Below are positions 18,619 to 20,563 of a stretch of 64,000 nucleotides of DNA, in pieces. The notes under the pieces were generated by a model. That model worked only from the letters and a program-made list of their open reading frames with translations. It was not told where the DNA came from and did no database searches. A program made the position numbers and the translations under genes. The stretch comes from Eledone cirrhosa (lineage: Eukaryota), in assembly GCA_964016885.1 (NCBI GenBank), contig OZ024743.1, forward strand, positions 146,568,001 to 146,632,000, read 5' to 3'. How positions within the stretch are numbered: the first letter of the stretch is position 1; each line of letters begins with the position of its first letter.

Positions 18619-19505
18619 TCATTCAAAATGTACTGGCATGAAATAGACTATAGTCTTTATAGAATCTTGTATGATGATCACTTGCTGGAGATGCTCATTT
18701 GCATATAGCTTAATGGTCATTTGGATATTGCTTATCGCTAATTAAATATAAGCAACCAAGCTCACACTTCAGCAGTGAGGCTACCTATATGTTTATTGTA
18801 TATAAATGCATTATATATGTATTCATATACAGCTCTATTATGCTTAAATGGTGTCTTCGAGCTACTGCCAATTATACATATTTATATATATATGTAAAAG
18901 TTCTATTTAAAATTGTTGGGATACAACAAGCAAATATTTTTATAACTGATATAAAGCACTCAACAAATATTTGGAGTAAAAATACGATATTAACAAATGG
19001 AAACTATCTTTATAAAACCATATTTATTTCATTATACATATTTCAAGACACCAAGTTAAAAGGGTATGTCACTATTACTTTATAAAACTAATCTATATTA
19101 TATTTTATCTGATGAAAGCACACCATAATTTAACTTGGCGTCCTTGAAATATGTATAATGAAATAAATATGGTTTTATAAATATAGTTTCCATTTGTTAA
19201 TATCGTATATATATATATATATATATATATATATATATATATATATATATATATATATATATATATATATATATACATATATATACATACATACATATAT
19301 ATATATATATATATATATATATATATATATATATATATATATGTGTGTGTGTGTGTGTGTGTATACACACACACACACACACACACACACACATATATAT
19401 ATATATATATATATATATAATTTTCTTATTTTACGTCTTTCATATATATATATGAAAGACGTAAAATAAGAAAATTATAAAAATTAACTTACTTACTAAA
19501 ATTTC

Positions 19506-19589
19506 ACTCCAACTAATTAGTTTCTGAAAGGGAATAAACATGGTTTCCGAATGGAACAACATGGAGAATACCTTTCGTCATCAGGAAGT
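19506..19589 (-). ncRNA. Type I hammerhead ribozyme with palindromic stem III
   Basis: Minus strand reads ACTTC CTGATGA cGAAAGG...CCTTTCa GAAACTAATTAGTT GGAGT. 12-nt palindrome AACTAATTAGTT, GUU triplet, mismatch at the base of stem II. Confidence 0.75.
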
Positions 19590-20032
19590 CAATTCTCAGC
19601 TAAGTTCCCAGGCGATGCGTGGACACAGGGAACTTATACAAAAATAATTCAGAGGATGGAAAAAAGCAAGCGAGGACTAAATTCCAAGACATTGAAAAAA
19701 TCACTGCCTACTTGGTCGGTGGCAAATTCAAAAGAATCAATCACGTGACATCGAGGTTAATCAGTGAGGAGTGGGGTGTTAAGAAGACAGTAGCCGAACT
19801 ATTACTATGAACTATAGTAGCAGTTTTTGCAAATTTTTGCTCAACAAAATAATTTGGAGTTAATTATAAAGAATTAGTATATCTACCAACATATATATAC
19901 AGATGCATACCTATGCTAGCAAATATATAGGTTTTGTCTTAGTAACTCTGTGGTTCAATGCAAGGGGATGCAGAACAATTATATGAAAGACGTAAAATAA
20001 GAAAATTATAAAAATTAACTTACTCAAATTTC

Positions 20033-20116
20033 ACTCCAACTAATTAGTTTGTGAAAGGGAATAAACATGGTTTCCGAATGGAACAACATGGAGAATACCT
20101 TTCGTCATCAGGAAGT
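20033..20116 (-). ncRNA. Second tandem hammerhead copy with G12C core substitution
   Basis: Matches 19506-19589 except that GAAA reads CAAA. Confidence 0.65.
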
Positions 20117-20563
20117 CAATTCTCAGCTAAGTTCCCAGGAGATGCGTGGACACAGGGAACTTATACAAAAATAATTCAGTGGATGGAAAAAAGCAAGCGA
20201 GGACTAAATTCCAAGACATTGAAAAAATCACTGCCTACTTGGTCGGTGGCAAATTCAAAAGAATCAATCACGTGACATCGAGGTTAATCAGTGAGGAGTG
20301 GGGTGTTAAGAAGACAGTAGCCGAACTATTATTATGAAGGGAGTGAAATTTTAGTAATTAAGTTAATTTTTATAATTTTCTTATTTTACGTCTTTCATAT
20401 AATTGTTCTGCATCCCCTTGCATTGAACCACAGAGTTACTAAGACAAAACCTATATATTTGCTAGCATAGGTATGCATCTGTATATATATGTTGGTAGAT
20501 ATACTAATTCTTTATAATTATCTCCAAATTATTTTGTTGAGCAAAAATTTGCAAAAACTGCTA

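Follow-up and report, generated by a model that had tools for sequence, protein, structure and literature searches.

A 527-nt non-LTR retrozyme in TA microsatellites of Eledone cirrhosa and its probable copying by a Penelope-type reverse transcriptase

Analysis of a 527-nt repeat in a 64,000-nt stretch of Eledone cirrhosa DNA (OZ024743.1, hereafter the window) identifies it, by the criteria that can be read from DNA, as a non-LTR retrozyme, an element class that is already known. The family probably reaches TA microsatellites through a borrowed Penelope-type reverse transcriptase (RT), which would start at two internal priming sites and use mostly circular templates, together with about 1% of cleaved linear ones. 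This reading is drawn from the genomic sequence, where the 3' ends of two-armed insertions are fixed and 5' ends are enriched at the predicted hammerhead cleavage site.

Positions in the unit are counted from +1, the first base past the predicted cut, which is window position 20037 on the minus strand. The complete reference unit (20037..19511, minus strand; 527 nt, GC content of 35%) contains two internal sites, S1 at 19980 and S2 (+173) at 19865. It lies within arm A (19449..20338, minus strand), composed of unit positions 227–527, 1–527 and 1–58; the 1.7 direct minus-strand copies of the preliminary description are thus retained with their coordinates. Arm A contains two hammerheads. The first (19497..19598, minus strand) has an intact type I core (CTGATGA at 19584–19578, GAAA at 19524–19521), a palindromic stem III and a stem II (GAAAGG/CCTTTC) with a closing C.A mismatch; its predicted cleavage site after GUU lies at 19511/19510 and is read through here. 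The second (20024..20125, minus strand; CTGATGA at 20111–20105), with its predicted site between GUU and GGAG at 20038/20037, carries the private change G514C, which turns GAAA into CAAA at 20051, as had been noticed before. The inverted arm B (20340..20563, plus strand; unit 1–220) does start exactly at the predicted cleavage site, and the single extra G that precedes it at the head-to-head junction (20339, plus strand) differs from unit base 226 and is likely non-templated. The six nucleotides described as missing (19812–19817) correspond to unit positions 221–226, absent between the two arms. Both arms have in common the rare alleles 90G and 210A, present in 1/61 and 1/44 close relatives, respectively.

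At its 3' end arm A stops at the family site S1 (+58, in TATAATT, divided after TATA) and abuts a TA tract. The left flank holds the microsatellite (TA)13.5 at 19393..19419, itself within a larger TA/TG/CA block starting at 19206. The left end is more complex than the plain (TA)n of the preliminary description, owing to an additional inverted piece of 31 nt (19416..19446, plus strand; unit 28–58), absent from that description, whose 3' end is at S1. The dinucleotide TA separates this piece from arm A, and both together form a perfect 64-nt palindrome (19416–19479); the piece is likely a second small insertion. On the right, arm B is followed by a 5-nt filler and a 5'-truncated high-copy repeat (20564..20830, plus strand), which we take to be SINE-like. 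The outer end of arm B (unit 220) has no TA flank, which is atypical for the family, and this junction is possibly a deletion. Elsewhere in the window, an open frame of 1,150 residues (25775–29225, plus strand) resembles LINE ORF2 (endonuclease-RT) and is labelled as such putatively.

The genome (3.0 Gb, chromosome-scale contigs) was searched with two exact 16-mers. The one covering +1 to +16 matched 3,647 places and its reversed-pattern control 4; the hammerhead 16-mer from -16 to -1 matched 13,339, with 9 for its control. The family has thousands of dispersed copies, far above chance, which disposes of the single-copy alternative raised beforehand. Among the public sequencing-run contigs searched, none spans the focal junction, which therefore rests on the assembly and leaves an argument for a local assembly artefact. 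Such an artefact is nevertheless extremely improbable, as is a satellite that spread solely through DNA recombination: thousands of copies are dispersed on chromosome-scale contigs, their 3' ends are fixed, their 5' truncation is random, their junctions are specific to each locus, and the repeated parts within the focal locus differ at private sites.

Tandem spacings (n = 67) have a median of 528 nt, with 66 of them between 511 and 571 nt and one of 471 nt, and the most divergent subfamilies are about 71% identical to the reference unit. As anticipated, the unit is larger than those of roughly 170–400 nt described for invertebrates (Cervera & de la Pena 2020, PMC7229834), but it falls inside the retrozyme range of 51–972 bp given in a recent preprint (Li, Clavereau & Pollet 2026, 10.64898/2026.07.22.740005). 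Scanning the unit for ORFs returned none longer than 74 aa, Pfam gave no match above its cut-off, and half of the copies (85/170) contain frame-shifting indels; two antisense ORFs of 63 and 74 aa were considered as genes and rejected since they are not conserved. An ORF with RT plus GIY-YIG is absent, so that the element is not an autonomous PLE (Penelope-like element). On the other side, its units are arranged in tandem, each with a type I hammerhead motif, and are non-coding, with a GC content below 50% and no LTR. The retrozyme-like character proposed for this high-copy family is upheld by these features. In the youngest subfamily (L242, L244, L267, L282, L294), long copy-variable poly-A/poly-T runs occupy +20 to +35, and the units inside one insertion are otherwise 0–1% different. 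Two further motif families were encountered: a second hammerhead repeat with another palindromic stem III (L075:312 and 795, L046, L117:995), spaced by 483 nt in L075 and probably another retrozyme, and a third hammerhead-like motif unrelated to the 527-nt unit (L103:2431, L158:2420, L197:577).

The type I hammerhead assigned to each unit is borne out by cores, stems and covariation in 53 distinct copies, in which 98.1% of the cells are paired. Pair 25/75 of stem II occurs as all four Watson-Crick types, without exception in 53/53 distinct sequences, and another pair shows G-C swapped for U-A in 20 copies; covariation is 0.29 against 0.12 for shuffled data, the counts being inflated by the relatedness of the 53 sequences. 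Compensatory changes are present in stems I and II, and the stem I variants ACTCC/GGAGT, ACTTCC/GGGAGT and ACTTTC/GGAAGT represent co-insertions in subfamilies, while the core is nearly invariant among subfamilies that are 70–80% alike. Thus, the motif is conserved and covarying across the family, and cleavage itself is predicted. The Rfam check suggested in the preliminary description went against it: RF00163 (Hammerhead_1) gave no match at the gathering threshold or at E<=10, the hits at the latter level being discarded as microsatellite and palindrome noise; the miss is likely due to the 39-nt insert in stem II. In the minimum free energy fold, stems I and II are formed, the catalytic core and stem III are not. 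The 12-nt palindrome holding the 3-bp stem III is computed at -10.8 kcal/mol as a self-duplex and +1.5 kcal/mol as a hairpin, and the circular fold has a z-score of -4.7 against 40 shuffles, which is compatible with circular RNA. Three features suggest that cleavage would be slow or dimer-dependent, namely GUU as the triplet, the C.A mismatch at the closure of stem II and a palindromic stem III of 3 bp. Comparable motifs are described for axolotl in PMC7229834: in newt and axolotl satellite-2 hammerheads stem III is weak and palindromic, as suits cleavage in dimers, and in HHR_Amex2 the base of stem II is mismatched. Compared with these satellites as there described, the present family differs by its dispersed insertions of 1–5 units, its inverted arms, the long stem II insert and the GUU triplet.

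Insertions were mapped at 105 position-ordered loci on contig C1, 66 of which cover the first 100 places of the +1 to +16 search and 39 of which derive from the -16 to -1 search. The 3' end falls at S1 (+58) or S2 (+173), with TA adjoining, in 148 of the 175 arms, and a TA run is found at most 60 nt away from 157 of the 175 arm 3' ends. Both sites read TATAATT in the reference unit, with the end after TATA; the longer TA tracts, at +109 and +139, do not serve as main 3' sites. Head-to-head pairs number 61 in the 105 loci: 47 combine S1 with S2, none S1 with S1, none S2 with S2, and 14 involve another end. Fold-back of a single cDNA as the source of the second arm was rejected on this basis, as it predicts S1/S1 pairs (0/61 seen). 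The partner arm is the closest relative sampled in 29 of the 47 S1/S2 pairs and within the top 5% in 39; it lies outside the top 10% in 6 (e.g. L006, L057). Conversion of one inverted arm by the other could give the appearance of a shared template. Apart from the fixed 3' sites, arm 5' ends are scattered along the unit, at 0.0027 per nt.

Two internal 3' ends, an inverted 5'-truncated copy, partial tandems and a microsatellite or AT-rich target are thus found together, and the suspected involvement of a Penelope-type activity gains from this pattern. The same combination, with the internal 3' ends ("tail") located downstream of the hammerhead, characterizes the Poseidon, Neptune and Naiad PLEs (Craig 2021, PMC8557442; Frangieh 2024, PMC11167929); the present unit differs from PLEs by the absence of an ORF, a tail of 115 nt instead of 30–40 and a full stem III. 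Moreover, for the PLE named PAc, two internal RT start sites with extension of both strands are described (PMC11167929).

Several junctions show features of their own. The second arms of L051, L055, L122 and L261 halt at +55 to +61, beside S1; a collision with the other primer or TATA microhomology are both possible explanations. Templates with CTC before the TATA of S2 have (CT)3-14 at 13/23 terminal junctions and at 0/17 internal copies; for the CTTT variant the repeat is found at 0/73 terminal junctions. The S2 junctions concerned are L174, L175, L179, L251–L254, L264, L265, L268, L278 and L292. Reconstruction of the empty site was usable in one case (L168), and one insertion into a short TA tract presently has TA-rich flanks of 112 and 185 nt. 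The (CT)n repeats and the long TA flanks possibly reflect RT stuttering at initiation; later slippage beside a long TA run is another possible origin.

The preliminary description had proposed that arm B starts where it does because the template was a self-cleaved RNA, and that breakpoints random with respect to the site between GUU and GGAG would speak against this. A non-T base precedes GGAG in 740 of the 3,647 matches; the extra G was considered as a family-wide mark of run-off and rejected, the inspected cases belonging mostly to a subfamily in which a C/G insertion in stem I is compensated. Because a non-T base before GGAG mostly marks this subfamily, the genome-wide test was based on two mismatches, i.e. 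+1 preceded by two non-T bases (VV). This search yielded 32 matches, of which 27 are true arm 5' ends at +1, from 24 insertions; the remaining ones are L140–L142 (template with a deleted hammerhead), L149 (short duplication) and L156 (point mutant). The 27 arms compare with about 5.8 expected, a figure which rests on an estimated detection rate, and represent an approximately 5-fold excess (Poisson p ~1e-10). A matched control at -16 gave 54/13,339 matches, about 10 of the 30 inspected being true ends; extrapolated from these 30 of 54 loci, judged by eye, it corresponds to about 18 ends against about 16 expected, and to a rough odds ratio of about 5.5. The breakpoints are therefore not random relative to the site, and enrichment throughout the genome supports the earlier interpretation.

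Symmetric junctions, in which both arms end at +1 with 0–3 linker bases, were found in 20 insertions, against 2 at the -16 control and 0 at a core control. All 15 that were inspected are insertions of the family, from several subfamilies; 10 have two short arms, 1 is truncated, and in 4 a long S1 arm passed one site before ending at the following one. As 14 of the 20 have linkers containing A/T, which may have been copied from the bases immediately upstream of the cut, the end is located at +1 to within about 2 nt; the other 6 retain no upstream base. Linkers at +1 junctions vary from 0 to 112 nt, the longest being 112 nt of unrelated sequence in L154 between two arms both ending at +1. Independently of any cleavage, the clustering could be due to a pause of the RT at the hammerhead fold, or to a joining preference for the G/C-rich end GGAG/CTCC. 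Microhomology of 1–2 nt at some junctions (L152, L159, L240), the 12-nt palindrome just upstream and a few ends at -2 or -3 are in line with this possibility. It is improbable, however, since a stalled RT should leave its ends at the 3' border of stem I, from +5 onwards, and not at +1, six symmetric junctions keep no upstream base, linkers are varied, and neither the stem-edge control at -16 nor the core control shows an excess. The 5' ends at +1 are likely to be a DNA record of self-cut RNA that was used occasionally as a linear template.

Such use is infrequent. Among loci chosen without bias, an exact stop was seen at 1/166 sites and two further stops within 3 nt, which puts run-off at about 1%; read-through, seen at 178 junctions, is the normal outcome. 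Read-through does not depend on a damaged ribozyme: the suggestion that the CAAA change had inactivated the internal hammerhead and thereby allowed it did not hold, as C514, like other changes private to this copy, is found in 0/75 close relatives, arm A crosses the GAAA ribozyme at 19511 although that one is intact, and the core is likewise intact in 181 of the 215 junctions that were read through. This raises the question of what the usual template is. One answer retains the element and the PLE-type priming and takes a long, linear, uncleaved read-through transcript as the template, the ribozyme cutting at about 1% of sites. Several observations point in this direction: PAc inserts from unprocessed RNA in vitro according to PMC11167929, the hammerhead features are weak, and 8/9 Xenopus retrozyme dimers were uncut in vitro (10.64898/2026.07.22.740005). 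Furthermore, 4 of the 15 inspected symmetric junctions and L146 crossed one site and stopped at the next, which indicates the use of partly cleaved linear multimers. On the other hand, a nearly invariant core across subfamilies that are 70–80% alike is hard to explain if cutting hardly matters, and random 5' truncation would shorten the arrays in each generation unless multimers were regenerated. A third argument comes from L142:810-1560, derived from a template without the whole hammerhead, in which the aberrant junction of position 449 to position 1 recurs three times, on both arms of one insertion; no other VV match carries it. Taken together, core conservation, the need to regenerate multimers and this recurrence on both arms lead us to favor circles to a moderate extent, and an uncleaved transcript as the usual template appears possible yet rather unlikely. 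Neither the comparison of divergence within and between loci nor a scan for locus-private indels separated circles from multimers.

In L1 twin priming, both ends of the target prime cDNA and an inverted 5' part results. The preliminary description had invoked this process, and for the focal locus it would mean that both arms were primed on one cleaved multimer, arm A being stopped at +227 by the primer of arm B near +220–225 and the dead CAAA hammerhead allowing read-through. The near-abutting ends at 220 and 227, the TATA at +222–225, which is a rare 3' end in L041, L093 and L098, and the rare alleles common to arms A and B all agree with such a course. As a mechanism for the family, however, twin priming is not sustained: abutting, non-overlapping arms, the geometry into which the focal locus fits, are found in 7/61 pairs, with about 7 expected by chance, and in contrast to L1 the arms usually cover overlapping sequence, begin at two fixed sites and in many cases share their 5' end. 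For the focal locus itself it is unlikely, in that the outer end of arm B is a filler/SINE junction and not TA-primed, arm A passed an intact ribozyme, and CAAA is confined to this copy; the process is unproven because this outer end looks like a deletion junction. Under two-site priming by a Penelope-type RT, arm B would represent a run-off at +1, and the near-abutting geometry could be due to primer collision, or to chance plus a later deletion.

A candidate for the enzyme was sought among the PLEs of the same genome. A very young Neptune-like element (L228, G000:C28:57246500-57255500; ORF 2461–6114, minus strand) has an open frame of 1,218 residues, a minimal hammerhead in its pLTR and a (TA)n target, with 38,297 candidates at first look. 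In the 12 loci examined, 3 showed one arm, and the 9 two-armed ones each combine one short and one long 3' end (9/9). Pfam gave no match for the 1,218-aa ORF or for a Naiad-like fragment; the Atlas neighbours carry HTH_animal, GIY-YIG and RVT_1. As there is no DNA similarity between the unit and this element, the only full PLE compared, it is considered a candidate helper, its role as a parent being unproven. Symmetric junctions at its predicted cut site, whose assignment is uncertain, number 0. PLE fragments near the copies viewed are separated from the unit by (TA)n, and no ORF continuous with the unit was seen among the matches listed or in the mapped loci. A second PLE family, about 54% identical to the Neptune-like one, occurs at L059, L121 and L147. 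PLE protein fragments near copies (L136:3-551 minus, L020, L042, L046, L190) are presumably Naiad-like, judging by their motifs, and a Naiad-type element is possibly another TA-targeting helper.

The likely course of events is as follows. Tandem transcripts would self-cleave slowly or as dimers, and a PLE RT, which may well be dimeric like the one predicted for PAc, would prime both DNA ends on one RNA, each arm from a different one of the fixed internal sites +58 and +173. Most templates would be continuous across the cut, most likely as ligated circles; reading through on them would give arms longer than one unit that stop at random. About 1% of the templates would be linear cleavage products, on which the RT runs off at +1 and often adds 0–2 bases, before the cDNA ends are joined. 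A fuller version, combining an RT dimer, two sites, strand displacement over the overlapping template, a telomerase-like dinucleotide stutter and a proportion of about 99% circles to 1% cut linear RNA, is put forward tentatively, as somewhat more liable to fail in one of its parts than to hold throughout.

The family shares with metazoan non-LTR retrozymes the non-coding low-GC tandem unit, one type I hammerhead per unit, a short palindromic stem III, thousands of copies and co-occurring PLEs; RtcB circularizes their monomers according to PMC7229834. The insertion anatomy mapped here (arms, priming sites, TA target and ends at the cut site) was not found in the consulted sections of those papers. 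A pLTR parent was found for 21/57 Xenopus retrozyme families (10.64898/2026.07.22.740005), unlike the present one, for which none was found with one full PLE compared. In the mostly open-access literature, a search for retrozymes in cephalopods found only PMC8557442, and neither a cephalopod retrozyme nor genomic ends at the cut site were described in any paper listed, although the supplements of 10.64898/2026.07.22.740005 and PMC7229834 may name related families; nor was any found that combines twin priming, Penelope and hammerhead, or Penelope-like telomerase-like slippage or microsatellites and hammerhead.

Two views of the hammerhead in Penelope-type mobilization stand side by side. It was dispensable for PAc in vitro, and Frangieh et al. 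(PMC11167929) report no RNA reads ending at the cut, in contrast to the genomic 5' ends enriched there in this family; the retrozyme model requires cleavage and circles. The enzyme that moves animal retrozymes has so far been deduced just from co-occurrence and pLTR homology. Here, countable genomic evidence is available for PLE-type two-site priming on a retrozyme and for ends at the cut site, and the rule of one site per arm is common to this retrozyme and to a young Neptune-like element of the same genome. The family offers a ready test system, since its RNA is small, its priming sites are mapped and a candidate RT is intact. If the fuller version of the mechanism is true, it would provide genomic evidence that the PLE machinery uses products of hammerhead cleavage as templates in vivo, and such elements would help to write the very microsatellites that hold them.
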